From NCBI GenBank assembly GCA_030679255.1, contig JAUXTO010000030.1, positions 3,420-67,419 on the forward strand: 64,000 nucleotides of DNA, read 5' to 3'. Shown in pieces: positions 9,716-26,153 of this stretch (positions within the stretch are counted from its first letter, which is position 1; every line of letters begins with the position of its first letter). The notes below the pieces were generated by a model. That model was given only the letters and a program-made list of their open reading frames with translations. It had not been told where the DNA came from and searched no databases. This stretch comes from Candidatus Gottesmanbacteria bacterium. GTDB lineage: Bacteria; Patescibacteriota; Microgenomatia; UBA10105; UBA927. The position numbers and the translations under genes are program-made.

Positions 9716-11596
9716 ATGAAACACAATGACAACGAGTATCTCAACAACATGCGCCATAGTTGCGCGCACTTGCTTGCTCACGCAATAAAGATCCTGTATC
9801 CGGGAGCACTCAATGCCATAGGACCTGCAATAGAACACGGATTCTATCAGGATTTTGATATGGGCAAGTGGAAAATTTCTGAAGAAGATTTCCCCAAGAT
9901 TGAAGCAAAAATGCGAGAGATTCTTCCAAGGTGGGTGAAATTTAGCTTCAACGAAATATCTCTTGCAGAAGCGATACGACTATTCAAAGACAATAAGTAT
10001 AAAGTCGAAATGGCCACAGAATTTGCCGCAGGCGGCAAAAAGCTCATGACTAACGACCCGGGAGACTTTCTGGATCTTTGTAAAATGGGCCATGTCGAAA
10101 ATCCCTCCAAAGAACTCTCGAACTTCGAACTACTCTCCGTCGCCGGCGCTTACTGGCGGGGAAGCGAAAAAAATAAAATGTTGACACGGATTTACGGCAC
10201 CTGTTTCCCGACCAAAGATGAACTCGATGCCCATCTTCATCAATTGGAAGAATCCAAAAAAAGAGATCACCGTAAAATAGGTCAGGATCTGGATTTATTT
10301 TCGACAAACCCACTTACAGGACAGGGTCTTATCCTCTGGCACCCAAAGCTCTCCGTGACCCGAAATATCGTAGAACAATTTTGGAAGGCAGAACATTATA
10401 AGCGGGGATATCAGCTTGTTTATACGCCCCATATCGCAAGCATGGATATGTTTGTCAAAAGCCGTCACCTGTCCAAATACATCAATTCCATGTTTCCCGT
10501 CATGCTGCATGAGTACATCGAGGGAGAGAGTGCTCCGGATTATCAGGTCGACGAGATACTCAAACCCATGAACTGCCCCAATCATATTCAGATATACAAA
10601 CACCGGCCGCGAAGTTACCGCGAGCTACCGTTGAGGATCGGAGAACTTGGGACGGTGTACCGCTATGAACGCGCAGGAGTCCTTCATGGACTAACGAGAG
10701 TACGGGGATTTACCCAGGACGACTCACACATCTTCTGTACATCTGATCAGGTGATCGATGAGGTACGCGGGGTACTCCGGATTATGAAAGATTTTTACGC
10801 GCTGTTTGGCTTTAAGGACTATCAGGCATATATTTCCACCCGTCCGGAAAAATATCTCGGAACCCTTGAGACGTGGCACATGGCCGAAGAATCACTCAAA
10901 AAAGCGGCTGCCGACGAAGGCTTTGATTACAAAATAGACGAAGGTGAAGGGGTATTTTATGGACCAAAAATCGATATCAAAGTCAAAGACTCTATCGGCC
11001 GGGAATGGCAACTCGGTACGGTGCAGTTTGACTTTAACCAGCCATCTCAAGCGGAGACCACGGATGATGAGATCGAAGAGTTTTGGAAGCTCAAGACGTT
11101 TAAACATAAATTCAAGACTAAAGAAGCGATGGCCAAATACCTCCGGAAACTTGGACGAGGATTTAATGTAACGTATGTGGATGCCGATGGAAAAGAAAAA
11201 CAGTGCGTCATGATCCATCGAGTAATTTTCGGCTCTTTGGAACGCTTCTTTGGCATCCTCATCGAACACTACGCCGGAGCGTTTCCTGTGTGGCTTGCCC
11301 CAGTCCAAGTAGCCCTCATTCCGATAGCTGAGCGGCATAATGAAGGGGCAAAAAAGGCCCTACAGGCTCTACGGGACGCGGGGCTACGCGTGGAGCTTGA
11401 TGACCGCAATGAGTCGATGCAGGCCAAAATCAGGAATCACACATTGCAAAAAGTGCCCTACCTGGCTATAATGGGAGATCGTGAGATCCAGGGTGCAACT
11501 GTATCCGTGAGGACCAGGAGCGGCGAGGATCTCGGGGCTATGAGCCTCGAGCAATTTGTCCGCAACGTCAACGACGAGATTGAACGCAAACACTAA
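9716..11596 (+). CDS. thrS: threonine--tRNA ligase
   Basis: N2 editing-domain HxxxH (CAHLLAH), class II core, C-terminal anticodon-binding domain. Lacks the TGS domain and carries a ~35-aa insertion near 11050..11160. Confidence 0.9.
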   Translation: MKHNDNEYLNNMRHSCAHLLAHAIKILYPGALNAIGPAIEHGFYQDFDMGKWKISEEDFPKIEAKMREILPRWVKFSFNEISLAEAIRLFKDNKYKVEMATEFAAGGKKLMTNDPGDFLDLCKMGHVENPSKELSNFELLSVAGAYWRGSEKNKMLTRIYGTCFPTKDELDAHLHQLEESKKRDHRKIGQDLDLFSTNPLTGQGLILWHPKLSVTRNIVEQFWKAEHYKRGYQLVYTPHIASMDMFVKSRHLSKYINSMFPVMLHEYIEGESAPDYQVDEILKPMNCPNHIQIYKHRPRSYRELPLRIGELGTVYRYERAGVLHGLTRVRGFTQDDSHIFCTSDQVIDEVRGVLRIMKDFYALFGFKDYQAYISTRPEKYLGTLETWHMAEESLKKAAADEGFDYKIDEGEGVFYGPKIDIKVKDSIGREWQLGTVQFDFNQPSQAETTDDEIEEFWKLKTFKHKFKTKEAMAKYLRKLGRGFNVTYVDADGKEKQCVMIHRVIFGSLERFFGILIEHYAGAFPVWLAPVQVALIPIAERHNEGAKKALQALRDAGLRVELDDRNESMQAKIRNHTLQKVPYLAIMGDREIQGATVSVRTRSGEDLGAMSLEQFVRNVNDEIERKH

Positions 11597-12113
11597 TCGT
11601 AAATTTTATCGCCTCAACTACCAAATCGCAGCGAGCGAGGTGCGTCTTTTGGACGAAGAGGGGAAGCAGATCGGGGTAGTGAGTAAGCTCGCGGCGCTCC
11701 AAAAAGCCAAAGAGCTGGGGCTTGATATAGTGGAAATTGCACCAAACGCGAAGCCGCCGGTAGCTAAGCTCATTGATTACAAGAAGTTTAAGTATCAGGA
11801 GGCTAAAAAAGAACGTGAGGGGCGGAAAAGTCAAAAAAATGTTGGCGTGAAGGAAATCCGGCTCAGGCCATTTATCGGACAGCATGATTTTGATACCAGG
11901 GTCGCCAAAGCAAAAGAATTTCTAAGCGATGGCAATCAGGTCAAGGTGACACTCTCTTTTAAAGGACGGGAGATGACGCGGAAAGAATTTGGATTTGCCG
12001 TCGTCAAGCGTTTTATAGAGTCACTCGAGTCGATCAAAGTCGTCCGTGAGCCTAAAGTGCTTGGGCGATATATCGAAGCCATGATCGTGAATGATAAAAA
12101 AGGATCCGTATGA
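11580..12113 (+). CDS. infC: translation initiation factor IF-3
   Basis: EVRLLDEEGKQIGVV...KFKYQ is the IF3 N- and C-domain signature. Start is uncertain: track TTG at 11556, a second in-frame TTG at 11580, and ATC at 11625. It overlaps the thrS 3' end, as is common. Confidence 0.8.
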   Translation: MNANTNRKFYRLNYQIAASEVRLLDEEGKQIGVVSKLAALQKAKELGLDIVEIAPNAKPPVAKLIDYKKFKYQEAKKEREGRKSQKNVGVKEIRLRPFIGQHDFDTRVAKAKEFLSDGNQVKVTLSFKGREMTRKEFGFAVVKRFIESLESIKVVREPKVLGRYIEAMIVNDKKGSV

Positions 12114-12307: not shown

Positions 12308-12658
12308 ATGAGAGTCAAACGGGGAGTTACCAGTCACGCGAAACACAAAAAGCTCATGGAGGCCAATTCGGGCTACAGGATGACCAAACGCCGCCTCGTA
12401 CGTGTCGCCAAGCAAGCGTATCTCCATGCAGGAGAACACGCCTTCGCCGGACGCAAAAATCGCAAGCGCGATATCCGGGCGCTTTGGATTACCAGAATCT
12501 CCGAAGCGGTCAAACTACAAGGTCTCTCCTATAGTTCCTTCATTTTTCAGCTCAAACAAGCCAATATTTCTCTTGACCGCAAAATCCTCGCCAATCTCGT
12601 GGTCGAAAATCCGGATACATTCACCCATATCGTTGACAACGTGCGATCCGTAAATTAA
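12308..12658 (+). CDS. rplT: 50S ribosomal protein L20
   Basis: MRVKRGVTSHAKHKK...RKNRKRDIRALWI is canonical L20. Confidence 0.9.
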   Translation: MRVKRGVTSHAKHKKLMEANSGYRMTKRRLVRVAKQAYLHAGEHAFAGRKNRKRDIRALWITRISEAVKLQGLSYSSFIFQLKQANISLDRKILANLVVENPDTFTHIVDNVRSVN

Positions 12659-12816
12659 AATATAAATACATGACGACCCAAAAATACTTTACCTATTTCT
12701 TTTTTACCTCCAAACTTGGAGGCTCTTTGGGTTGCATGTAATTAAAAATTAATTTCAAATACCCACAAGAACCTCCGAAAGGAGGTTTTTTAGTGGACTG
12801 AAAGGAGGTGATATTT

Positions 12817-13032
12817 ATGACAGATGTATGTGGTAGTGGACCTTGGAAAAATACTGACGCAGAAGTCATACACGCAGCGCTTTGGTTAGCCAATAGTGGC
12901 GTAAATATTGCGGGATTGTCTGACGGAGAGGTTCTTTTAACATATCAAAGTGTTCGATATCCAATCCTTCCGGATGTATATAGTGTTGATGAACAATCTA
13001 TATCTATTCGGGTCGCTGGAGAACGAAAATAA
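12817..13032 (+). CDS. hypothetical small protein (71 aa)
   Basis: Follows terminator cctccgaaaggaggtttttt and a perfect SD AAAGGAGGTGA. Located upstream of pheS. Confidence 0.3.
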   Translation: MTDVCGSGPWKNTDAEVIHAALWLANSGVNIAGLSDGEVLLTYQSVRYPILPDVYSVDEQSISIRVAGERK

Positions 13033-13074: not shown

Positions 13075-14973
13075 TTGAGAAGAAAAAATATGACCAACCT
13101 TATCTACATGACCGACAGTTACCGGACTGAGCTTGCCGCTCAGGTGGTGTCGTGCATCAAAAAGGGGAGCGGGTGGGAGATAGTGCTCGACCAAACGATT
13201 TTCTACCCGCAGGGGGGCGGGCAACCGTCAGACAAAGGAACGATCAAGGGAAAACAGGGGCTTGCGACGGTCAAGCATGTCCGGATGTTGGGCGATGAGG
13301 TCATCCACGAATGTGCCTTGAATGGGACAATCGATGAAAAGGAGTCGGTTGAATGTTCCATCGATTGGAATGCTCGGTACCACAACATGCGTGCCCATAG
13401 CGCGGGTCACGTCGTCCATGAAGCGGTGAGGCTCGTCGCGCCATATCTGGATCCGATTAAAGGAGAGCACGGAAAATCCGCATATATTGAGTACAAGGGT
13501 TCTCTTCCTGTCGACAAAAAACCACTTATCGAACAACAAGGTAACGACCTAATCCGACAAAATTTGACCCTTAAAACCGAATTTGTGACTCTGGACGAAC
13601 TTCAAAAGAGAGCTTCGTACATTCCTGAGCATCTTCCAAAACACAAGCCGCTTCGCATTCTTTCGGTAGGTAACTATCCACCTATTCCCGATGGGGGTAC
13701 GCAGGTAAAATCCACCGGAGAAATAGGGGAGATAACTATTACTTCAGTGGATAACGCAGATGATCACGTTCGTGTTTACTACGCAATACCTCCAAACGAA
13801 TCCGATGAAACAAAAAACGATACCTGCCAATCAGTCGACTCAACTGTATCAACATCTAGGCACGATACCGGGAATCAAGCAATCAAAGTGGATCAAATTA
13901 TGACCGCCCCGCAATTTATCGGCCTTCTCTTGGATGCTCAACGCAATGCTAAAGAATTTATTACCATTTCAGATAAATCAGCCGAAGAACTTCGATTGCT
14001 TCTTTTAGGCCCGAAAAGCGAACTTGGCCGGCTCACCAAACAAATCCGTCAAGTACCAGCCTCCGATCGAGGGAATGTCGGGGTGGTCGTCAACGAAGTC
14101 AAGAGTTCTATTATTGAGGCCATCGCCATCCACGCCGCTCATTCCACAACTTCAAAGCCTGGCTTTGATTTGAATTGGGCCGATGTAACAATCCCGGGTA
14201 TTCGACCCCCCGAAGGTCATCTGCATATTGTGTCACAGGCGATCACTGAAATCACGCGGATTTTCGAACGGATCGGCTTCACGCGCGTCCGGCACCCGGA
14301 GGTTGACTGGGATTACTATGCGTTTGAGGCGCTTAACATGCCGCCGCACCACCCGGCCCGCGACGAATGGGAAACCTTCTTCATCGACTACCCCGGCAAA
14401 CCTCCAGGCACAAGGCCTGGCCTTGAGGCTACGCGCAGGAAACAAATTGTGCTTACTCCCCACACGAGCAATGGCCAGGTGCGTGAGATGGAAAAGGGAA
14501 AGCTTCCCATCCGCATGATCAACATTGCTAAGTGTTATCGTCGTCAATCCGATGTATCCCACGTCCCGATGTTTCATCAATTTGAAGGCATGTATATTGA
14601 TAAAGGAGTCACCATCGGAGACTTGACTGGAGTATTTAATTTTTTCGTAAAAAATTACTTTGGTCCAGACCGCAATGTCCGTTTACGCCCGTTCCATTTT
14701 CAATTCACCGAGCCTTCTGTTGAAATTGATATCAACTGTGGTATTTGTCTGGGCAAGGGATGTCGATTGTGCAAAGAAGGTTGGCTTGAAATGGCTGGTG
14801 GGGGTATGGTGCACCCAAATGTACTTAAAGCTGGTGGGGTAGATCCGAGCGTCTACAGTGGTTTTGCTTTTGGATGGGGTGTTGAACGCGCCGCCATGAT
14901 GAAATCCGGCACCAAACTCGATGACATCCGATTGCTGTATAGCAATGACATTCGATTTCTCAATCAATTCTAA
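13075..14973 (+). CDS. pheS: AlaX-like tRNA-editing domain fused to phenylalanine--tRNA ligase alpha subunit
   Basis: N-terminal ~270 aa resembles AlaX (YMTDSY...FYPQGGGQPSDKGTI...HSAGHVV...DGGTQVKSTGEIG). C-terminal ~350 aa is PheS (class II motifs, LTPHTSNGQVR, FGWGVERAAM). No stop codon separates them. Family-1 palindrome in frame at 14407..14430. Confidence 0.75.
   Translation: MRRKNMTNLIYMTDSYRTELAAQVVSCIKKGSGWEIVLDQTIFYPQGGGQPSDKGTIKGKQGLATVKHVRMLGDEVIHECALNGTIDEKESVECSIDWNARYHNMRAHSAGHVVHEAVRLVAPYLDPIKGEHGKSAYIEYKGSLPVDKKPLIEQQGNDLIRQNLTLKTEFVTLDELQKRASYIPEHLPKHKPLRILSVGNYPPIPDGGTQVKSTGEIGEITITSVDNADDHVRVYYAIPPNESDETKNDTCQSVDSTVSTSRHDTGNQAIKVDQIMTAPQFIGLLLDAQRNAKEFITISDKSAEELRLLLLGPKSELGRLTKQIRQVPASDRGNVGVVVNEVKSSIIEAIAIHAAHSTTSKPGFDLNWADVTIPGIRPPEGHLHIVSQAITEITRIFERIGFTRVRHPEVDWDYYAFEALNMPPHHPARDEWETFFIDYPGKPPGTRPGLEATRRKQIVLTPHTSNGQVREMEKGKLPIRMINIAKCYRRQSDVSHVPMFHQFEGMYIDKGVTIGDLTGVFNFFVKNYFGPDRNVRLRPFHFQFTEPSVEIDINCGICLGKGCRLCKEGWLEMAGGGMVHPNVLKAGGVDPSVYSGFAFGWGVERAAMMKSGTKLDDIRLLYSNDIRFLNQF
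14407..14430. repeat. family-1 palindrome inside pheS (encodes GTRPGLEA)
   Basis: ggcacaaggcctggccttgaggct. Confidence 0.7.
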
Positions 14974-14979
14974 CAACCT

Positions 14980-15405
14980 ATGACGGATACAGAGGTACAA
15001 GACAAAAAAATAGTCATTGTTATCAGTGCAAACTTAGCAATAGGACAAGCCGCCAACCGGGCAGCGGTCCTGGCAACTGGCCTAGCTGCTCATGTTCCGA
15101 ATATGATCGGAGTCGATCTTGCGACAAAAGATGGCAAAACACTCTTGGGCTATACGCAAATCCCGATTCCTATTCTGACGACGAAACCCGACACGTCTCT
15201 TTCGGCACTTGTCGATAAAAGCCAGGAACTAGGATGTACGGTTATTCTCTTTTTGTCCAGAGTCCAGGGAATGACGTCGTATGAAGAATATATACAATCG
15301 ATAGGCCAAACCAATTATCAAGACTTGGATATAGACGCAATTGCGCTCTACGGAGACAAAAAATCGGTGACAAAAATTACCGGCAATCTGCCGTCATTAC
15401 GATAA
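14980..15405 (+). CDS. DUF2000 / PTH2-like small protein
   Basis: 141 aa. KKIVIVISANLAIGQAANRAAVLATGLA matches the DUF2000 pattern, a peptidyl-tRNA hydrolase 2-like fold. Lies between pheS and pheT. Confidence 0.45.
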   Translation: MTDTEVQDKKIVIVISANLAIGQAANRAAVLATGLAAHVPNMIGVDLATKDGKTLLGYTQIPIPILTTKPDTSLSALVDKSQELGCTVILFLSRVQGMTSYEEYIQSIGQTNYQDLDIDAIALYGDKKSVTKITGNLPSLR

Positions 15406-15408
15406 ATT

Positions 15409-17496
15409 ATGAATATATTAGTACCAGATTCATGGTTGCGAGAATTCCTTATTACAAAGGCAACTCCGCAGCAAATCAAGGAATACCTCTCTTTGTGCGG
15501 TCCATCGGTTGAACGGATGCATGAGGAGGATGGGGAATTCATTTATGACATCGAGGTTACGGGCAACCGCCCGGATTCAATGTCCATAGTGGGTATCGCG
15601 CGAGAAGCGGCAGCCATCCTCCCACGCTTTGAAATTGCGGCAAAATTACAAAATGATCCCTATTCACAAAACTACGCACAAAAGGTGAGACCTTTTGAGG
15701 CTAATAATTTGACAAAAAAACTCGTTATCAAAACCGATCCGATCCTCAATCCGCGTTGGACGAGCGTCGTTATGGATAACGTGAAGGTGGGGCCGTCGCC
15801 AGTATGGCTTCAAAAACGGCTCGAGGCAACGGGGATCCGCTCGCTGAACACGATTGTCGATGTGACCAATTACATCATGCGGGCCTATGGTCAACCGGTT
15901 CATGCGTTTGACTACGACCAGGTACTGCCAAAAAATGGCGTTTCCACCATGATCCTTCGTGCCTCAAAAAAAGGAGAGCGGGTGATCACTCTCGATGGCA
16001 AAACGCACATCCTGCCCGGTGATGACATCGTCATAGAGGACGGATCAGGGAGACTTATCGACCTATGCGGCATCATGGGCGCCCAAAATTCATCGGTAAA
16101 AAGCACAACGAAAACCATTGTCCTCTTTATGCAAACGTACGAACCCACGCACATCAGAAAAACCAGCATGTCTTTGGCCCATCGAACAGAAGCAGCCGAT
16201 CTTTTTGAAAAGGGGCTCGATCCGGAACTGGTTTTGCCCTCGGTTCTCAAAGGAATTGAACTTATCGCCCAGGTTGCTGGAGGAAAAGTCTCAAGTAAAA
16301 TTTACGATATCTACCCCAAACCGTATAAATCATCTACTGTTTCCGCCTCTCGGACAAAGTCTGATGCCTACATCGGCAAACGTCTGAAAGACAAAGAGAT
16401 TGCCGATATTCTCAAACCCCTCGGTTTCCAAGCAAAAGTCACCAAAGACAGTATCACGGTCACGGTTCCCAGTTTCCGCCGGGATGTGACGATTGACGTC
16501 GACATCATCGAGGAACTGGCACGCATCTACGGCTACCACAACATCACGTCGACCCTTCCGGACACCGCCCCGCCCGTCGTTATACCCGATCAATCACTTA
16601 GTTGGGAGGAAGAAATCAAAGTGCGACTGCGCGATTGGGGATACACCGAAACCTACACCTACTCCATGATTTCCGAAGAACTTATGGATATCTTTGGATT
16701 GGACAAATCTAAAGCGTATAAAATTGCCAATCCATTATCCAACGAATGGGTCTACATGCGACCCAGCCTCTGGCCCAGCATGCTTTCTACCGTCAAACAA
16801 AACATGAATATAACACAAAATCTAAGACTCTTTGAGTTGAGTATGGTATATGATTACCGACGCGGCGATCTTCCCGACGAAAAGCCCGTTTTACTCATTG
16901 CGTGGACAGGAGATAAATTTTATGAAGCGAAGGGACTCGCGGAGGCAATTCTTGATTTGCTTGGTATCGGGATACCTGCCGAATCTGTCATCCCGGCGAA
17001 CGCCGGGATCCAGAGTACAAAAAAACTGGATCCTCGGGTCAAGCCCGAGGATGACAAGCAACTCGATTGGTACGGCGCACAACGACTATCATTTGGTAGT
17101 TTTGGATCCATCGGACTCGTTCACCAGAAATTTCTTGATGCATTACAAATTCATACACCCGTAACCATCCTGGAATTGGATGTTGCAGAGCTTGTCAAGT
17201 ATGCGCGCTCCACCAAGCAATACATCCCCATCCCAAAATATCCTGCAAGCTACGAGGACCTAGCATTCGTGTTGCCACCACAGACACCCGTCGGCCCCAT
17301 GATTGCCGCGCTCAAATCCGCACACTCATTAGTGAGCGACGTTTCACTCTTAGATCAATTTGAAACCACGACCACCTTTCACATCACCTATCTTTCATTG
17401 GAAAAAAATTTGACAACTGAAGATATCCGCCCCATCCGCGAGAAGCTCATCGCCATGGCCCAAAAGAAATTCAACGCGCAGCTCAAGACAGTGTAA
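15409..17496 (+). CDS. pheT: phenylalanine--tRNA ligase beta subunit
   Basis: MNILVPDSWLREFL N-terminus, B3/4 and B5 domains, C-terminal FDX-ACB-like domain. 695 aa, so likely lacks the tRNA-binding B2 domain. 69-bp family-3 element in frame at 16987..17055. Confidence 0.9.
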   Translation: MNILVPDSWLREFLITKATPQQIKEYLSLCGPSVERMHEEDGEFIYDIEVTGNRPDSMSIVGIAREAAAILPRFEIAAKLQNDPYSQNYAQKVRPFEANNLTKKLVIKTDPILNPRWTSVVMDNVKVGPSPVWLQKRLEATGIRSLNTIVDVTNYIMRAYGQPVHAFDYDQVLPKNGVSTMILRASKKGERVITLDGKTHILPGDDIVIEDGSGRLIDLCGIMGAQNSSVKSTTKTIVLFMQTYEPTHIRKTSMSLAHRTEAADLFEKGLDPELVLPSVLKGIELIAQVAGGKVSSKIYDIYPKPYKSSTVSASRTKSDAYIGKRLKDKEIADILKPLGFQAKVTKDSITVTVPSFRRDVTIDVDIIEELARIYGYHNITSTLPDTAPPVVIPDQSLSWEEEIKVRLRDWGYTETYTYSMISEELMDIFGLDKSKAYKIANPLSNEWVYMRPSLWPSMLSTVKQNMNITQNLRLFELSMVYDYRRGDLPDEKPVLLIAWTGDKFYEAKGLAEAILDLLGIGIPAESVIPANAGIQSTKKLDPRVKPEDDKQLDWYGAQRLSFGSFGSIGLVHQKFLDALQIHTPVTILELDVAELVKYARSTKQYIPIPKYPASYEDLAFVLPPQTPVGPMIAALKSAHSLVSDVSLLDQFETTTTFHITYLSLEKNLTTEDIRPIREKLIAMAQKKFNAQLKTV
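16987..17055. repeat. family-3 palindromic element inside pheT (69 bp, in frame)
   Basis: gtcatcccggcgaacgccgggatcc agagtacaaaaaaactgg atcctcgggtcaagcccgaggatgac. Two small hairpins flank a spacer. Encodes VIPANAGIQSTKKLDPRVKPEDD. Confidence 0.7.
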
Positions 17497-17572: not shown

Positions 17573-20233
17573 TTAGGGGCTAACCGTTGGAGTGAGTGTT
17601 GGCGTTTGCGTTGGTGTCAACGTTGGTGTAGGGGTCGGCGTTGGAAACGGCTGATTGACACTTATTTTTATCTCCCACTCGGCGACATTCCCTTTCGTAT
17701 CGATGGCTTTGGCTTTTATCGTATGCACGCCATCAGTCTTCATATCAATTGTCTCTGAAGCTTGGCTCCCGGACACTTCGCGCTCCCGATTGCCGTCGAC
17801 ATAAATTTCTATTTTATCCACCCCATTGCCACTTCCTGCCTCTACCCGGATCTTGACCTCTCTTGAGTTGACCTGCGTTTCATTTCCCGGCTCTTTGATG
17901 GATACGGCGATTGGGTCACTGGATGAAGAGGTCTCCGTCGGCGGATGAAACTTCGCATCAGTTTGGAGTCCCAGCCAGACATTAATCCCATCCTGCCAGC
18001 GGTTTTTGCCATCTGAGGAAGCCGGATCATCTTCGCTCAATACCACAAACGCACGCGTGTCATACTCACCTTTGGCTATCTGTACGGCGTTGGCAAGTTT
18101 ATTGCTATCACTTTTGGATACCTTTACATCTTTATAGATAGACGCAGCGGAAGTTGGCTCCGTGCCTTTCACAAACCGCTCTTTCCGAGTCGGGTTCCCA
18201 TCTTTGGGCGTCCCGCCTCCATAACTGTCTATCTCAAGCTCCATGATGCCACTTGGACGAACAAACGGTTCGTCCGGCCTCGTGGCCAGTGCATCCCGCA
18301 TAATCCGGTTCCAGATGGGGGCCGCGCCCGTCACGCCGGAGGCTAAACTTGGATGCATCGGAGAGTTATCGTTATTGCCCACCCATGTTCCGACGACGAC
18401 GGATGGCGTGTATCCCATCGCCCAGTTATCCCGTTTGTCATCCGTCGTACCGGTCTTGGCTGCGACTGTCTTGCCTGGAATAAAAATATAAGATCGTAAA
18501 CCAAATACTTCTTTGCGCGCGTCATTATCAGAAAGGATATCGCTCACGAGGTAGGCGATTTCGGGGCTCATCACCCGTCGTCCGGATGTGGGCTTGTGTT
18601 CATAAAGCATTTTTCCTTTGCTATCGACTACTTTGAGAAGTGCCACAGTTTCATATCGTTCTCCGGCTGCGGCCAACACCCCAAATGCCTGGGTGAGTTC
18701 TAAAAGTTTTACCTCGCCACCACCGAGCGTCAGAGACAATCCAATGCGTTTAAGATTTTCGTCCGTGGGCTCGAGGGAGTTAAGCCCCATGTCGTAAGCG
18801 AGCCGCAAGCTGTCGCGCACTCCAACGAGCGCGCTCACCTTGACGGCAATCGTATTGATGGAATTGGCGAGCGCGTACCGCAGCTGCATAGGTCCCCGGA
18901 ATTTGTTGTCATAATTTTTAGGATTGTACTCGGGTTTGGTCGTATCCCCGGAAGGATATTTGGTATCGACATCCATGAGAAGGGTCGCAGTGGTGTATCC
19001 TTTCTTAAAAGCTGCCGCGTACATGATGGGTTTGATGGCCGACCCCGGCTGCCGGAGTCCTTGGGTAACCACATTAAATTTATAACCCCCTGAGTCCGTC
19101 GCCGAGTAATCTTTCGAGCCGACCATCGCAAGGATTTCTCCCGTCTTGGGATCGATGACGATAGCAGCTCCATTGCCGACTTTCAATTTTTTCGCTTTTT
19201 CCACTTCCTCCGAGACGGCTACCTGCGCTTTTTCTTGGAGTTTCCAGTCAAGGGACGTCGTCACCGTGAGCCCTCCTCCTGCCACTAACTTTTCTCCAAA
19301 CTTATCATTGAGAAGTTGCCGGACATATGCCACAAAGTGCGGCGCGCGCAGTCCCTCATTGCCTTTGGCAAATTGTATTGTTTCCAAATCAGCTCTGGCT
19401 TTTTCTTCCTGGGCCCCAGATATATATCCATCATCCTTCATGCGGCGGAGCACATGCTGCGAGCGTCCCACATACGCCTTAGGATCCCCGGAAAAAGGCG
19501 AATAGCGGCTGGGGGATTGGGGAAGTCCGGCGATAATAGCAGCTTCCACAAGGGTCAATTCCCGCACCGGCTTACTAAAGTACTGTTCGCTTGCCGCCTC
19601 GACCCCCACGGCCGTCCCGCCATACGGCGCTTCATTGAGGTACATACGCAGAATATCATCCTTGGTATATTTGCGTTCGATCTGGATGGCAAGAATTGCT
19701 TCTTTTATCTTGCGTGGGACGGTACGCTCCTGAGTGAGCAATACATTCTTGACCAGTTGTTGGGTGAGCGTCGATCCTCCCTGGAGATTACGGAAAACAA
19801 AAATATTGAGCAGTGCCCGCAGTATCCCGGTCCGGGAGAGTCCCTGATGTTTATAAAAGTCTTTGTCTTCTACGGCAATCGTTGCGTCTTTGAGTTGTTG
19901 CGGGATGTCTTCCCATTTGACGAGGATCCTGTTTTGGTCTTCAAAGATGTCATAGAGTTTCTCGCCGTTGCGATCCAGGACTACCGTCGAGAGCCCGTCG
20001 CTTCGCTTCACTTTATCCGGCCGGGGTAAGTCTTTCGCGTACCAGGCAAACACAATGCCGACGGAAAGCACACTCCCAAGAAACAGAAAAAACGCTCCGA
20101 TGGCAATGGCCGACCACGTCTTCATTTTGAGTCGTCCCGATCCGAAAGTTTTTTTCCATTGCCTCTGAAAATGTGCTTCTCTCCACATGCTTCTATTGTA
20201 CGTGGATGATGGGCGACTTGCAATTTTCGTCAA
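17573..20233 (-). CDS. class A penicillin-binding protein (PBP1A-type transglycosylase/transpeptidase) with C-terminal extension
   Basis: GT51 motifs EDKDFYKHQG and GGSTLTQQL. Transpeptidase motifs SAIKP and KTGTT. C-terminal PT-rich tail PTPTPTPTLTPTQTPTLTPT. The likely start is an internal M (MKTWSAIAIG) at 20125. Confidence 0.9.
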   Translation of the reverse strand: MTKIASRPSSTYNRSMWREAHFQRQWKKTFGSGRLKMKTWSAIAIGAFFLFLGSVLSVGIVFAWYAKDLPRPDKVKRSDGLSTVVLDRNGEKLYDIFEDQNRILVKWEDIPQQLKDATIAVEDKDFYKHQGLSRTGILRALLNIFVFRNLQGGSTLTQQLVKNVLLTQERTVPRKIKEAILAIQIERKYTKDDILRMYLNEAPYGGTAVGVEAASEQYFSKPVRELTLVEAAIIAGLPQSPSRYSPFSGDPKAYVGRSQHVLRRMKDDGYISGAQEEKARADLETIQFAKGNEGLRAPHFVAYVRQLLNDKFGEKLVAGGGLTVTTSLDWKLQEKAQVAVSEEVEKAKKLKVGNGAAIVIDPKTGEILAMVGSKDYSATDSGGYKFNVVTQGLRQPGSAIKPIMYAAAFKKGYTTATLLMDVDTKYPSGDTTKPEYNPKNYDNKFRGPMQLRYALANSINTIAVKVSALVGVRDSLRLAYDMGLNSLEPTDENLKRIGLSLTLGGGEVKLLELTQAFGVLAAAGERYETVALLKVVDSKGKMLYEHKPTSGRRVMSPEIAYLVSDILSDNDARKEVFGLRSYIFIPGKTVAAKTGTTDDKRDNWAMGYTPSVVVGTWVGNNDNSPMHPSLASGVTGAAPIWNRIMRDALATRPDEPFVRPSGIMELEIDSYGGGTPKDGNPTRKERFVKGTEPTSAASIYKDVKVSKSDSNKLANAVQIAKGEYDTRAFVVLSEDDPASSDGKNRWQDGINVWLGLQTDAKFHPPTETSSSSDPIAVSIKEPGNETQVNSREVKIRVEAGSGNGVDKIEIYVDGNREREVSGSQASETIDMKTDGVHTIKAKAIDTKGNVAEWEIKISVNQPFPTPTPTPTLTPTQTPTLTPTVSP

Positions 20234-22730: not shown

Positions 22731-23915
22731 ATGGATGCAATTGAGGAATTATTAACAAGAGGGGTTGAGAATATTATTCCGGACAAAGAAAAACTCCGGA
22801 AGCTTTTGGTGAGTGGGAAGAAGCTCAATATCTACTTAGGTATCGACCCTACAGCGACCAATATTCACATTGGCCACGCGGTACCATTACGGAAGCTCAA
22901 TGCATTTGCCCAGGAAGGACATAATGTCACGTTTCTTATCGGAGACTTTACCGCGCTCATCGGGGATACGTCGGATAAAGATACAGAACGACCCATATTA
23001 ACGAGTGAACAAATTGAAACAAACTTTCAAACGTACAAAAAACAAGCGGAAAAAGTGTTGGATTTTTCCAAAGTGAAGGTCCGATTCAATAGCGAGTGGC
23101 TTAAGGATCTAAAATTTGCTGAAATTGTCAAGCTTACCCAACACTTCTCTGCTGGGGATTTTGTCGGCAGGGAACTTATTAAAAATCGCCTGAACTCCGG
23201 AAAGAAAGTCGGGCTCCACGAGCTTCTCTATCCCATAATGCAAGGATACGATAGTTTTCACATGGATACCGATATCCAGCTCGGTGGCACAGATCAAACA
23301 TTCAATATGCAAGCAGGACGGGTGCTTCAAAAAGATTTACGTAGTAAAGAATCGTTTATCATTGCCAACGGATTCCTTGAAGGAACGGACGGCCGTAAAA
23401 TGAGTAAGTCCTGGGGAAATGCCATATGGCTTACCGATCTTCCTAACGACATGTTTGGTAAGGTCATGTCTCTCCGCGATGAGCTCATCATCAACTACCT
23501 GACGCTCGCGACCAGTACCCCGCTCGGGGAAATTGAAAAAATGCATGCACGGCTTACGATGGGGGAGAATCCAATGGTGATAAAGAAGATTCTTGCTCAC
23601 AGGATCGTAACTGAGCTCCACTCGGAAACTTCTGCCGACCAAGCACAAACTTGGTTTGAAGAGCTGCATCAGCAAAAAAATACAACAAATGTTGATCTTC
23701 CCATCATTGCTCTCCCTTCAGGGGCAACTATCATTGACGCGCTCTCTGGCGATCCCTTCAATCAATCAACGACAGAAATAAAACGCAACATTAGCACGGG
23801 AAGCGTGGACATCAATGACCAAACAATCACCCGGGAAATGTCAAAAACGTTACTCAAAAATAATGATATAATCAAATTTGGTACAAAAAAAATTGTCAAG
23901 GTGAAACTCAAATAA
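22731..23915 (+). CDS. tyrS: tyrosine--tRNA ligase
   Basis: HIGH motif (HIGHAV), KMSKS, and the GGTDQTFNMQAGRVL segment typical of TyrRS. Confidence 0.85.
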   Translation: MDAIEELLTRGVENIIPDKEKLRKLLVSGKKLNIYLGIDPTATNIHIGHAVPLRKLNAFAQEGHNVTFLIGDFTALIGDTSDKDTERPILTSEQIETNFQTYKKQAEKVLDFSKVKVRFNSEWLKDLKFAEIVKLTQHFSAGDFVGRELIKNRLNSGKKVGLHELLYPIMQGYDSFHMDTDIQLGGTDQTFNMQAGRVLQKDLRSKESFIIANGFLEGTDGRKMSKSWGNAIWLTDLPNDMFGKVMSLRDELIINYLTLATSTPLGEIEKMHARLTMGENPMVIKKILAHRIVTELHSETSADQAQTWFEELHQQKNTTNVDLPIIALPSGATIIDALSGDPFNQSTTEIKRNISTGSVDINDQTITREMSKTLLKNNDIIKFGTKKIVKVKLK

Positions 23916-23917
23916 GT

Positions 23918-24025
23918 ATGAACTTCTTCAGAAAACATGAACTGTTTTGGAAAGTGATCGTCGTCATCGCAAGCCTCGCGCTTATCGCGTCCTCCTTCGC
24001 GCCACTCCTCTTCGGTGGGTTATAA
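23918..24025 (+). CDS. hypothetical 35-aa hydrophobic peptide
   Basis: MNFFRKHELFWKVIVVIASLALIASSFAPLLFGGL has a single predicted TM helix. Weak call. Confidence 0.2.
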   Translation: MNFFRKHELFWKVIVVIASLALIASSFAPLLFGGL

Positions 24026-24032
24026 TAGGAGA

Positions 24033-26153
24033 ATGGATCTCACCCTTGCCACTCCCGTCCAATATGTCCCCCGCGTAGGACCGGCACGAGCCAAGCTCCT
24101 GGCCAAACTCGGAATCGAAACGGTCCACGACCTTCTGTATTACATTCCGTTCCGCTATGATGATTTCTCGATTGTGTCTCCGATTGCCAAAGTACGTCCG
24201 GGTGAAACGGTCACAATTGGCGGCACGGTCACGGCATTTCATAACGCCTTCACCAAATCCGGCAAAAAAATGCAGGAGGTAAAAGTAAGCGACGAGAGTG
24301 GCACACTTGAGGTCATCTGGTTTAATCAGCCCTTCCTCGTCCGGGTTTTACCGGTTGGTACCATCGTTCGACTTGCCGGCAAAATTGACTGGTACGGCCA
24401 CAAACTCGTCATGTCCTCTCCCTCCTACGAGGTGACAGGGCGAGACCCTGTCAATGTACCTCCTGCTTATTCAGCGATATCGCCAATAATGACAGGGTCT
24501 CGCCCTGTCATTCAAAGTCTTCATACCGGCCGGCTTGTTCCGGTCTATTCAGAAACTGCAGGGCTGACGTCCAAATGGTTGCGGGGCAGGATTTCATTTG
24601 TTTTAGAAACGGTCTTAAAACATCTGAACGATACTATACCGGAGTCTGTCCAATCCGATCACCATCTCGTGCCACTCGCTCGTGCAATTCAATCAGTTCA
24701 CTTTCCGGATTCGATCGTACGGTCCGAAACCGCACGCCGGCGGCTCGCGTTTGATGAACTATTTTTCCTACAACTGCGCGCATGGCATGAACGTCGCGTC
24801 TGGGAACTATCAAAAAAATCCCATGCGTGCAGGATAGACGAAAAAAAAGTCACCGAACTCATCGCCTCGCTCCCGTTTACCCTGACGGATGATCAACATG
24901 GATCGATTAAAGAAATCTTGCATGATTTGACGAGAACCTACCCCATGAACCGGCTGCTGGAAGGCGATGTGGGATCCGGTAAAACCGTCGTTGCGATGAT
25001 TGCCATGTATGTAGCCCATCTCAATGGGTTACAGTCTGTCCTTATGGCGCCCACACAAATACTGGCGGAACAACATCATAAAACTATTAAAGGTTTTCTT
25101 GAACCGTTCGGTATCTCTGTTGCCTTAATCACCGGAAATCGAAGCATGAATCAGGAATCAGGAATCAGGGTAAAACTGCATCCCGGTATTCTCGTCGGTA
25201 CTCATGCCCTCCTCTCTAAAAAAATCAAATACCAACGGTTGGGTCTTGTGGTCATCGATGAACAACAACGCTTCGGGGTCGTGCAACGAGGGACACTCGA
25301 AGAAATGACGAAGCGGGGAAATACTCCCCATTTGCTCACCATGACCGCAACTCCCATTCCGCGGACTATTGCCCGTACGATCATGGGAAATCTGGACCTC
25401 TCGGTTCTGGCAACCATACCCGGCGGCCGGAAAAAAATTAAAACGTGGGTCGTTCCGAACGAAAAGCGGGACAAAAGCTATCCCTGGATCACGCAGCAAA
25501 TCAACCAAACCGGCGGCCAAGTATTCGTCATCTGTCCCCTGATCGATGAATCAGAAACCCTTTTCACCGCAAAGGCCGCCACAACCGAATATATCCGTCT
25601 CAAATCCCTATTTCCGGAACTTCAACTTGGCCTCCTCCATGGCCGCATGAAACCAAAAGAAAAAACTGAAGTTCTCGACGCATTCCGGCGGGGTGACATC
25701 CACATGCTTGTGGCCACCCCCGTCGTCGAGGTAGGTATCGACATACCCAACGCAACAATCATGGTCATCGAGGCGGCCGAACGCTTCGGCCTGTCCCAAC
25801 TCCACCAACTCCGCGGCCGGGTAGGGAGGGGAGACCTGCAGTCATATTGTTTATTGTTTACCGAACAGGGAGAAGAACGTACCCTCACCCGTCTCAAATC
25901 CATGGAAACCACGCATAGCGGGCCGGTCCTGGCGGACATAGACCTCCAACTTCGGGGTCCGGGTGAGCTTTTCGGCACGCGCCAACATGGGATACCGGAC
26001 CTCCATGTAGCGCGTTGGACGGATACAGCCCTTATCGCTGAAACAGGAAAATCCGTGAAAGAATTGGTGGCCAGTGACCCCTCCCTCACTGCTTTTCCCC
26101 TCTTGAGAGACAAGCTCGGAGAGAGTACAATAAAAACTATAACAGTTGATTAA
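24033..26153 (+). CDS. recG: ATP-dependent DNA helicase RecG
   Basis: Wedge domain, helicase motif I GDVGSGKT, DEQQRFG, motif VI QLRGRVGRG. Two family-2 palindromes (24433, 24490) and an AATCAGG x3 tandem (25147) lie in frame. An alternative start is 24015. Confidence 0.9.
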   Translation: MDLTLATPVQYVPRVGPARAKLLAKLGIETVHDLLYYIPFRYDDFSIVSPIAKVRPGETVTIGGTVTAFHNAFTKSGKKMQEVKVSDESGTLEVIWFNQPFLVRVLPVGTIVRLAGKIDWYGHKLVMSSPSYEVTGRDPVNVPPAYSAISPIMTGSRPVIQSLHTGRLVPVYSETAGLTSKWLRGRISFVLETVLKHLNDTIPESVQSDHHLVPLARAIQSVHFPDSIVRSETARRRLAFDELFFLQLRAWHERRVWELSKKSHACRIDEKKVTELIASLPFTLTDDQHGSIKEILHDLTRTYPMNRLLEGDVGSGKTVVAMIAMYVAHLNGLQSVLMAPTQILAEQHHKTIKGFLEPFGISVALITGNRSMNQESGIRVKLHPGILVGTHALLSKKIKYQRLGLVVIDEQQRFGVVQRGTLEEMTKRGNTPHLLTMTATPIPRTIARTIMGNLDLSVLATIPGGRKKIKTWVVPNEKRDKSYPWITQQINQTGGQVFVICPLIDESETLFTAKAATTEYIRLKSLFPELQLGLLHGRMKPKEKTEVLDAFRRGDIHMLVATPVVEVGIDIPNATIMVIEAAERFGLSQLHQLRGRVGRGDLQSYCLLFTEQGEERTLTRLKSMETTHSGPVLADIDLQLRGPGELFGTRQHGIPDLHVARWTDTALIAETGKSVKELVASDPSLTAFPLLRDKLGESTIKTITVD
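24433..24453. repeat. family-2 palindrome TGACAGGG-NNNNN-CCCTGTCA (in recG, encodes VTGRDPV)
   Basis: tgacagggcgagaccctgtca. Confidence 0.75.
24490..24510. repeat. family-2 palindrome (in recG, encodes MTGSRPV)
   Basis: tgacagggtctcgccctgtca. Confidence 0.75.
25147..25168. repeat. heptamer micro-tandem repeat (GAATCAG)x3 inside recG
   Basis: gaatcaggaatcaggaatcagg. Confidence 0.6.

Follow-up and report, generated by a model that had tools for sequence, protein, structure and literature searches.

The 64,000-nucleotide (nt) stretch of Candidatus Gottesmanbacteria DNA analyzed here (contig JAUXTO010000030.1; called the window below, with positions counted from its first letter) carries a phenylalanyl-tRNA synthetase (PheRS) operon in which an alaX-like gene is joined in frame to pheS, the gene for the PheRS alpha subunit. 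The assignment to Gottesmanbacteria agrees with a neighboring protein that is 100% identical to one named in NCBI. The gene order thrS-infC-rpmI-rplT-(alaX~pheS)-pheT is found in the window and in three related genomes (L001-L003), and in the window a small DUF2000 gene lies between pheS and pheT. The product of the fused gene is a single polypeptide composed of a complete AlaX-M-type module, a short hypervariable linker and an otherwise ordinary bacterial PheS. A previous examination of the letters alone (the sequence-only reading) had reported a 632-amino-acid (aa) open reading frame (ORF) without internal stop and quoted several of its motifs, all of which were recovered from the ORF list and the sequence. 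Its further statement, that an AlaX/AlaRS-editing-type module is in frame with a complete PheS, was corroborated by Pfam, NCBIfam, PDB alignment and AlphaFold2/Foldseek.

The uninterrupted mechanical ORF (13075..14973, forward strand, 632 aa) opens with TTG. Because the N-termini of homologues read MT[ENDK]L[IV]Y, the true start of the gene is most likely the ATG at 13090 (residue 6) and not the TTG at 13075. The ORF contains the motifs YMTDSY, FYPQGGGQPSDKGTI (residues 43-57), HSAGH (residues 108-112) and IPDGGTQV (residues 204-211). Profile searches of the N-terminal half, which had been proposed as a check, gave two Pfam matches above cut-off: the C-terminal part of tRNA-synt_2c (PF01411; residues 23-99, 50.6 bits, cut-off 30.3) and tRNA_SAD (PF07973; residues 193-235, 25.3 bits, cut-off 24). 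The NCBIfam AlaXM model NF040865 covers residues 7-237 (E = 1.1e-38) with 133 bits against a cut-off of 300. By these scores, the module is best regarded as a member of the AlaX/AlaRS-editing superfamily and not as an AlaXM equivalog. The AlphaFold2 model of residues 6-245 has a mean predicted local distance difference test score (pLDDT) of 96.1, and in Foldseek it comes closest to structures of AlaRS editing domains and of AlaX-M (2zze, 2zzf, 3kew, 9iuw and 2e1b), with query template modeling (TM) scores of 0.75-0.89 and E = 1e-14 to 4e-19. The C-terminal part has the N-terminal coiled coil and the class II core of PheS, matching Phe_tRNA-synt_N (PF02912, residues 302-351), tRNA-synt_2d (PF01409, residues 370-632, E = 8.7e-78) and the NCBIfam pheS model TIGR00468 (247.4 bits, exceeding the cut-off of 237.45), and it has its partner pheT in the same operon. 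The unfused PheS of a close relative, L119, aligns to the fused protein from about residue 276 on.

As the sequence-only reading had suggested, the same fusion was sought in related genomes, and it recurs there. A genome scan based on a sequence pattern, with one genome per species, revealed uninterrupted fused ORFs in four metagenome-assembled genomes (MAGs): L001, L002, L003 (Patescibacteria group bacterium) and the divergent L005 (Candidatus Paceibacterota bacterium), whose AlaX parts are 57%, 52%, 58% and 38-41% identical to that of the window, respectively. In a metagenome scan that used PheT as its anchor, 80 loci were recovered (L082-L161), and AlaX and PheS matches lie in one ORF in ten distinct loci (fused metagenome loci: L082, L088/89, L093, L102, L111, L115, L120, L123/124 and L135). 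In addition, the MAG locus L167 from NCBI has a called gene of 628 aa with PF01411, PF02912 and PF01409. The uninterrupted fusion is present in 15 or more independent assemblies, which come from different projects and assemblers, and we are nearly certain that it is real and conserved. When 1.84 billion representative proteins (50%-identity clusters) were searched exhaustively with HMMER, about 12 clusters proved to be full-length fusions, sharing 30-52% identity with the window protein. The 90%-identity clusters of fused proteins have only 1-11 members each, and the only name given to fused clusters is "phenylalanyl-tRNA synthetase alpha chain". This small number, together with literature searches in which no published description of an AlaX-PheS fusion was found, agrees with the earlier impression that the architecture is unusual.

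It has to be considered whether two genes, alaX and pheS, only appear joined because a stop or frameshift was missed near 13880..13900. Unfused abutting pairs do occur in two loci (L028 and L177), and a related contig, L162, is full of frameshifts. However, the 15 or more independent assemblies are uninterrupted and have linkers that differ in length and sequence from locus to locus, which excludes a missed stop or frameshift for practical purposes; the probability left to such an artefact is negligible. All genes of L162 are fragmented, which marks it as a noisy long-read assembly and not as evidence for two genes, and for the same reason P0031, a 172-aa fragment (75% identical) on this contig, was rejected as a decaying AlaX pseudogene. 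Production of a separate PheS from an internal start was also rejected: no internal PheS start is conserved, Met276 being Ile or Leu in most relatives, and no Shine-Dalgarno sequence lies ahead of it.

The active site of the module departs from that of known family members at the second zinc motif. H108 and H112 align with H564 and H568 of E. coli AlaRS and with HSALH/HTGLH of Pyrococcus AlaX-M. D206-Q210 align with C666-H670 of the E. coli enzyme, and the PDB sequence search, which also aligns the module with archaeal AlaRS editing domains, places IPDGGTQVK over IPCGGTHVK of Pyrococcus AlaX-M (2e1b, 9iuw). Cys->Asp and His->Gln thus hit exactly both second-motif zinc-ligand positions, as had been noticed from the letters, and the CxGxH signature of the AlaX family is absent. 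The description of this motif as degenerate did not survive comparison. About 50 of the 120 nearest module homologues, mostly free-standing proteins of about 230-245 aa, combine HxxxH with DGG[TVI][QH], and nearly all fused proteins carry DGG[TVI][QH]; a few, such as P0136 and P0148, carry the fully canonical pair HSAGH and CGGTH. In 54 canonical and Asp-variant homologues there is no variation in the GGGQ loop, in the second His or in the GG of the second motif. Among fused main-clade relatives, the module shares 46-84% identity with that of the window, which makes it better conserved than the PheS N-terminal coiled coil (26-65%); linker identity is 12-70%, and the segment from the AlaX core to the PheS N-helix measures 28-54 residues in relatives. 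Judged from these alignments, proteins with HxxxH and GGGQ and with DGG[TVI][QH] in place of CxGxH form a large conserved subfamily that includes free-standing AlaX-like proteins. Because the variant is kept across fused and free-standing homologues and the module is better conserved than the linker, DGGTQ reflects purifying selection on a defined active-site variant and not decay.

CxGxH has been called invariant in AlaX and AlaRS (PMC12003907). E. coli AlaRS and P. horikoshii AlaX-M keep their activity and specificity when zinc is taken out, and the metal serves to shield the substrate-binding Cys against H2O2 (PMC12003907). With HxxxH and GGGQ kept, the module well conserved and zinc dispensable in these enzymes, the earlier suggestion of a possibly inactive appendage is not supported. 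Other replacements of CxGxH were also observed in free-standing AlaX-M-like proteins of archaea and Clostridia, namely DGGTH (L025, L036, L040-L044, L060), QGG[IV]P (L054, L061-L063, L067, L071, L074, L078) and KGG[TI]R (L042, L053, L055, L056, L070). Therefore, outside AlaRS and the characterized AlaX proteins, the motif is less invariant than the literature states.

Table. Features of the fused alaX~pheS gene and its operon in the window (residues are numbered in the 632-aa ORF)
Feature	Position	Strand	Basis or remark
thrS	9716..11596	+	Upstream operon context
infC	11556..12113	+	Upstream operon context
rplT	12308..12658	+	Upstream operon context; rpmI lies between infC and rplT
Fused alaX~pheS gene	13090..14973	+	Likely start ATG 13090; stop codon 14971-14973
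AlaX-M-type module (beta-barrel and editing core), residues 6-238	13090..13788	+	NF040865, AlphaFold2, Foldseek
Gly-rich motif FYPQGGGQP, residues 43-51	13201..13227	+	G-G-G-Q invariant among 54 homologues
First motif HSAGH (H108...H112), canonical HxxxH	13396..13410	+	Alignments to E. coli AlaRS and Pyrococcus AlaX-M
Second motif DGGTQ (D206...Q210), replaces CGGTH	13690..13704	+	Same alignments; kept in homologues
Ser/Thr/Asp/Asn-rich linker of low complexity, residues 239-275	13789..13899	+	Locus comparison
PheS N-terminal coiled-coil region; Phe_tRNA-synt_N at residues 302-351	13900..14181	+	Pfam
PheS class II catalytic core, residues 370-632	14182..14970	+	PF01409, TIGR00468
DUF2000 gene, 141 aa, Pth2-like fold	14980..15405	+	PF09391, AlphaFold2, Foldseek
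pheT, 695 aa; B1, B3/B4, B5, core-like, FDX-ACB, no B2	15409..17496	+	Pfam, NCBIfam, E. coli alignment

Related loci show several stages of proximity between alaX and pheST. The upstream gene order of the window is shared with L167 and L177. In L177 rplT is followed by an unfused 274-aa alaX (DGGTQ), which has a 4-nt overlap with pheS (full order thrS-infC-rpmI-rplT-alaX-pheS-pheT). In L028, a canonical alaX (CGGTH) ends in a stop codon and the pheS ATG follows 3 nt on in the same frame. The alaX gene of L004 (DGGVQ) lies about 500 nt upstream of pheS, and that of L134 is directly downstream of pheT. Fused forms occupy three to four separate positions in the AlaX distance tree: the main clade including the window protein; L005, P0123 and P0132 together with the unfused L177 protein; P0125, P0128 and P0144 among free-standing 238-aa proteins that include the L134 alaX product; and P0136 and P0148 among canonical CGGTH proteins. 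For some fused domains the nearest neighbor is free-standing: P0144 shares 53% identity with the L134 AlaX, compared with 46% to any other fused domain. Fused and unfused lineages are interleaved on the PheT tree. The operon origin of the fusion is in part visible in these loci and in part inferred from them. Because unfused alaX overlaps or abuts pheS elsewhere, loss of a single stop codon is sufficient for fusion. An alaX gene situated between rplT and pheS would have lost its stop codon and become joined to pheS; this would have happened in several Patescibacteria lineages, and the overlapping or abutting pairs would be surviving intermediates.

A free-standing Asp-variant AlaX (DGGVQ) was also observed in L173 (3501..4199), directly preceded by genes for chorismate synthase, chorismate mutase, an aminotransferase and prephenate dehydrogenase/dehydratase and directly followed by TyrRS and RecG; the TyrRS-RecG pair is present in the window as well (22731..26153). 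Genes for AlaRS, tRNAPhe and tRNAAla were not found in the window or the related loci, where only tRNATyr and tRNAVal were seen. Promoter and terminator scans gave counts no better than those of shuffled sequence and were not used as evidence.

The partner subunit PheT is shortened, as had been stated. It scores 469.8 bits with TIGR00472 (cut-off 402.65) in a match that begins at model position 157, and residues ~40-150 of E. coli PheT, corresponding to the missing B2 (tRNA_bind, oligonucleotide/oligosaccharide-binding fold) domain, have no counterpart in it. All 80 of 80 related PheT proteins (about 657-700 aa) lack B2, whether their PheS is fused or not, and L119 manages without the module; the earlier idea that the module compensates for a short PheT is therefore not upheld. 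In the alignment with E. coli PheT, the editing-site residues R244, N254, H265, G318, T354 and A356 are kept, and the equivalent of beta-Glu334, which recognizes the Tyr hydroxyl in the B3/B4 editing site (PMC8599791, PMC3553970), is Phe (about residue 240, motif VLFMQTY). This Phe is found throughout the clade (L001-L005, L082-L161), fused or unfused, with Trp or Tyr in two lineages. The editing specificity of PheRS may thus be altered clade-wide. A link of the fusion with loss of PheT editing or with a short PheT was rejected, since the B2 deletion and the Glu334 change are common to fused and unfused lineages. The window PheT also has a private insertion of about 25 residues (residues ~530-555, ...KKLDPRVKPEDDKQLDW...).

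The small gene between pheS and pheT belongs to DUF2000 (PF09391, E = 8.6e-34, 116.8 bits, cut-off 25). Its AlphaFold2 model has a pLDDT of 87.4, and the first Foldseek match is Atu0240 (2gax; E = 4e-10, TM 0.80), followed by archaeal and eukaryotic peptidyl-tRNA hydrolase 2 (Pth2) structures (3erj, 1wn2, 1q7s and 1xty; E = 2e-4 to 1e-3, TM ~0.55). The window, L093, L167 and L169 all have DUF2000 in the interval from pheS to pheT, and the L093 copy is 90% identical to that of the window, compared with only 68-74% for the flanking pheS and pheT. In Roizmanbacteria loci (L164-166), a gene for a free-standing Asp-variant AlaX (HTAGH, PDGGVH) lies 11 nt after DUF2000. A general adjacency of DUF2000 to AlaX or pheST was rejected: it is confined to loci of the Gottesmanbacteria and Roizmanbacteria types. 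Three other surroundings of DUF2000 are unrelated, and the gene occurs in none of 80 AlaX genome loci. Literature searches found no published description of DUF2000.

From these observations we propose that the module is an active, PheRS-tethered aminoacyl-tRNA deacylase that works without the Cys-Zn pair as an extra proofreading site, a reading that we hold in even balance. Its two components differ in strength: catalytic activity is probable, and action on the products of PheRS is a tentative possibility. Under this proposal, the module would remain an ester hydrolase in which Asp assumes the substrate-binding role of the Cys, the residue in contact with the A76 ribose. Asp could still form hydrogen bonds and is not oxidizable, so that, with no thiol to oxidize, the protective zinc would no longer be needed. 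The flexible tether would keep the module close to the active site of PheRS, and there, as a further place of proofreading, it would hydrolyze mis-acylated tRNA made by or released from PheRS. The linkage with pheS/pheT recurs in four forms (fused, overlapping, upstream, and downstream of pheT), with none to thrS, infC or rplT. By a Rosetta-stone-type argument, this recurrence speaks for a PheRS-related substrate and points to tRNAPhe products, with Ser-/Gly-tRNAAla as a possible alternative. The position of the L173 gene between Phe/Tyr biosynthesis genes and TyrRS fits this reading. AlaX-family enzymes have been re-targeted elsewhere, BesG to tRNAThr and AlfB to tRNAMet substrates (PMC13149037).

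Two other explanations accept the fusion and differ in what the module does. According to one, it clears Ser-/Gly-tRNAAla like any AlaX-M, and its attachment to PheS is neutral, a matter of co-expression that followed loss of the alaX stop codon. The closest characterized relatives are indeed AlaX-M and the AlaRS editing domain. The module retains an unaltered GGGQ loop, which has been linked to Gly/Ser editing, and abutting alaX-pheS pairs make loss of a stop codon an easy accident; many close relatives, including L119, lack the module, and most free-standing AlaX genes do not lie near pheST. Moreover, an Arg adjoins the position equivalent to R693 of E. coli AlaRS, which contacts G3:U70 (PMC11260482), in the window's clade (HVRVYY). 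However, this alignment is uncertain by one residue, and a basic residue near the position is not conserved across fused proteins or the Asp-variant subfamily. Replacement of a catalytic Cys described as invariant in AlaX/AlaRS also speaks against this explanation, as does association with pheS/pheT at three to four places of the AlaX tree, in four arrangements and not with thrS, infC or rplT. We find a neutral fusion rather doubtful, but it is a serious competitor of the proposal.

According to the other explanation, which we consider very unlikely, the module is a dead AlaX-like appendage that adds a tRNA-binding surface to PheRS and perhaps offsets the missing B2 domain of PheT. A precedent exists in Plasmodium TrpRS, whose N-terminal AlaX-like domain, followed by a 72-residue linker, has lost its editing motifs and is needed for tRNA binding and aminoacylation (PMC3680381). 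Replacement of both second-motif ligands, the inactivity of the human AlaX mutant C209A and the lack of B2 in PheT fit such a role. The Plasmodium domain, however, has lost all four motif residues, whereas both His, GGGQ and a fixed Asp and Gln are conserved here, so that the window module does not show the loss of all motif residues that marks a non-catalytic appendage of the apicomplexan type. The same variant is kept by hundreds of free-standing proteins, about 240 aa long, for which a role as synthetase appendage is impossible. All relatives have a B2-less PheT irrespective of fusion, L119 lacks the module, and the motifs of the fused P0136 and P0148 are fully canonical.

Several points also weigh against the proposal of an active PheRS-tethered deacylase. 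The canonical AlaX pocket fits Ser and Gly and may not accept Tyr or another PheRS error. The PheT editing site is mostly intact, and its single change (beta-Glu334 to Phe) is independent of the fusion, which leaves no link between the fusion and lost PheT editing. About 50 close relatives are unfused, the nearest being L119 with PheS and PheT about 80% identical. These ~50 relatives have no alaX within several kb, and a search of the 700 nt that follow rplT in L119, with E values of up to 10 allowed, detected no AlaX remnant. Because this closest relative has a normal PheS with no trace of AlaX, the module is not essential in cis and is readily gained or lost. Most free-standing AlaX genes of Patescibacteria are not adjacent to pheST, and the AlaX and PheT trees are neighbor-joining trees without support values. 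In addition, human AlaX with Cys->Ala at position 209 (C209A) is inactive (PMC11260482); the Cys position thus matters, and Asp may be an inadequate replacement.

A more far-reaching form of the proposal, which we regard as unlikely, is that part of the Patescibacteria (Microgenomates and Paceibacteria) possess, on the alpha subunit, a second PheRS site of independent origin, AlaX-derived and Zn-thiolate-free (HxxxH plus Asp), that clears tRNAPhe errors missed by the altered B3/B4 site, with a DUF2000 partner in Gottesmanbacteria. If this were true, three modules of quality control (B3/B4, the AlaX module and the Pth2-fold DUF2000) would surround one synthetase, and a large Asp-variant branch of AlaX would have a substrate not on tRNAAla.

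Other genes of the window were also inspected. ThrRS lacks a TGS/N1 domain and begins directly with the N2 editing domain, in which HSCAH...CKMGH is kept; profile matches in two parts (13-445 and 481-623) hint at an insertion within its catalytic domain, and the ThrRS proteins of L001-L003 are also short (586-613 aa). Between rplT and the fused gene lies a 72-aa ORF (12817..13032, forward strand) with a strong GGAGG ribosome-binding site, and ahead of it, at about 12770-12800, a stem-loop is followed by a T-run. No family match was found for this ORF, and its sole counterpart, 46% identical, is in the noisy contig L162. Downstream, a gene on the reverse strand (17573..20233) encodes a putative class A penicillin-binding protein of 886 aa by the ORF call, with a C-terminal Pro-Thr repeat tail (PTPTPTPTLTPTQTPTLTPT); Transgly/Transpeptidase genes follow pheT in L162, L167, L169 and L177.

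Editing by aminoacyl-tRNA synthetases is usually seen as a set of fixed pairings, AlaX and the AlaRS editing domain with tRNAAla and B3/B4 with PheRS. A repeatedly evolved and conserved attachment of AlaX to PheS would be a new PheRS architecture, and in the Rosetta-stone sense it is a natural hint that PheRS is served by some AlaX proteins. The Asp/Gln branch has given up a zinc site tied to oxidant protection and so offers a natural test of the purpose of the Cys-Zn pair. Moreover, the AlaX-DUF2000 link gives DUF2000 a first testable functional context.

Compared with known systems, the module is most similar to AlaX-M (P. horikoshii PH0108, 2e1b; P. furiosus, 9iuw) and the AlaRS editing domain, with which it shares the two-domain fold, HxxxH and a length of about 230 aa. 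It differs from them in having DGGTQ for CxGxH, and thus no Cys and no fourth zinc ligand, and in being fused to PheS, neither free-standing nor part of AlaRS. PheRS itself proofreads Tyr-/m-Tyr-tRNAPhe with the B3/B4 domain of the same enzyme, of which CtdA is a free-standing relative. The AlaX module, of unrelated fold and different evolutionary origin, would be a second site, on the alpha subunit, and the window PheT retains B3/B4. The AlaX-like domain (AXD) of Plasmodium falciparum TrpRS is comparable as an AlaX-type domain at the N-terminus of an aromatic synthetase with a long flexible linker, whereas it is of AlaX-S type, has D, S, N and V at the motif residues and functions in tRNA binding (PMC3680381); the module described here is of AlaX-M type, and its partner is the bacterial class II PheS alpha subunit instead of a eukaryotic class I TrpRS. 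In BesG (beta-ethynylserine-tRNAThr) and AlfB (hydroxymethionine-tRNAMet), gene context and not homology reveals a substrate that is not on tRNAAla, which sets a precedent for AlaX action on the products of another synthetase (PMC13149037). Those proteins are free-standing and encoded in the biosynthetic gene clusters of producers, whereas the present module belongs to the housekeeping pheST operon of a small-genome bacterium, and, unlike in the BesG/AlfB clusters, a non-canonical amino acid pathway is not evident in the window context. Finally, the ProXp-ala domain of Plasmodium ProRS (mentioned in PMC11295145) is likewise a normally free-standing deacylase covalently attached to a synthetase; it is attached there to the synthetase whose errors it is known to correct, whereas here an editor of the alanine system is attached to PheRS. 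The fusion is related to two known kinds of arrangement: trans-editing factors that have become attached in cis, and AlaX-like domains carried by synthetases other than AlaRS.

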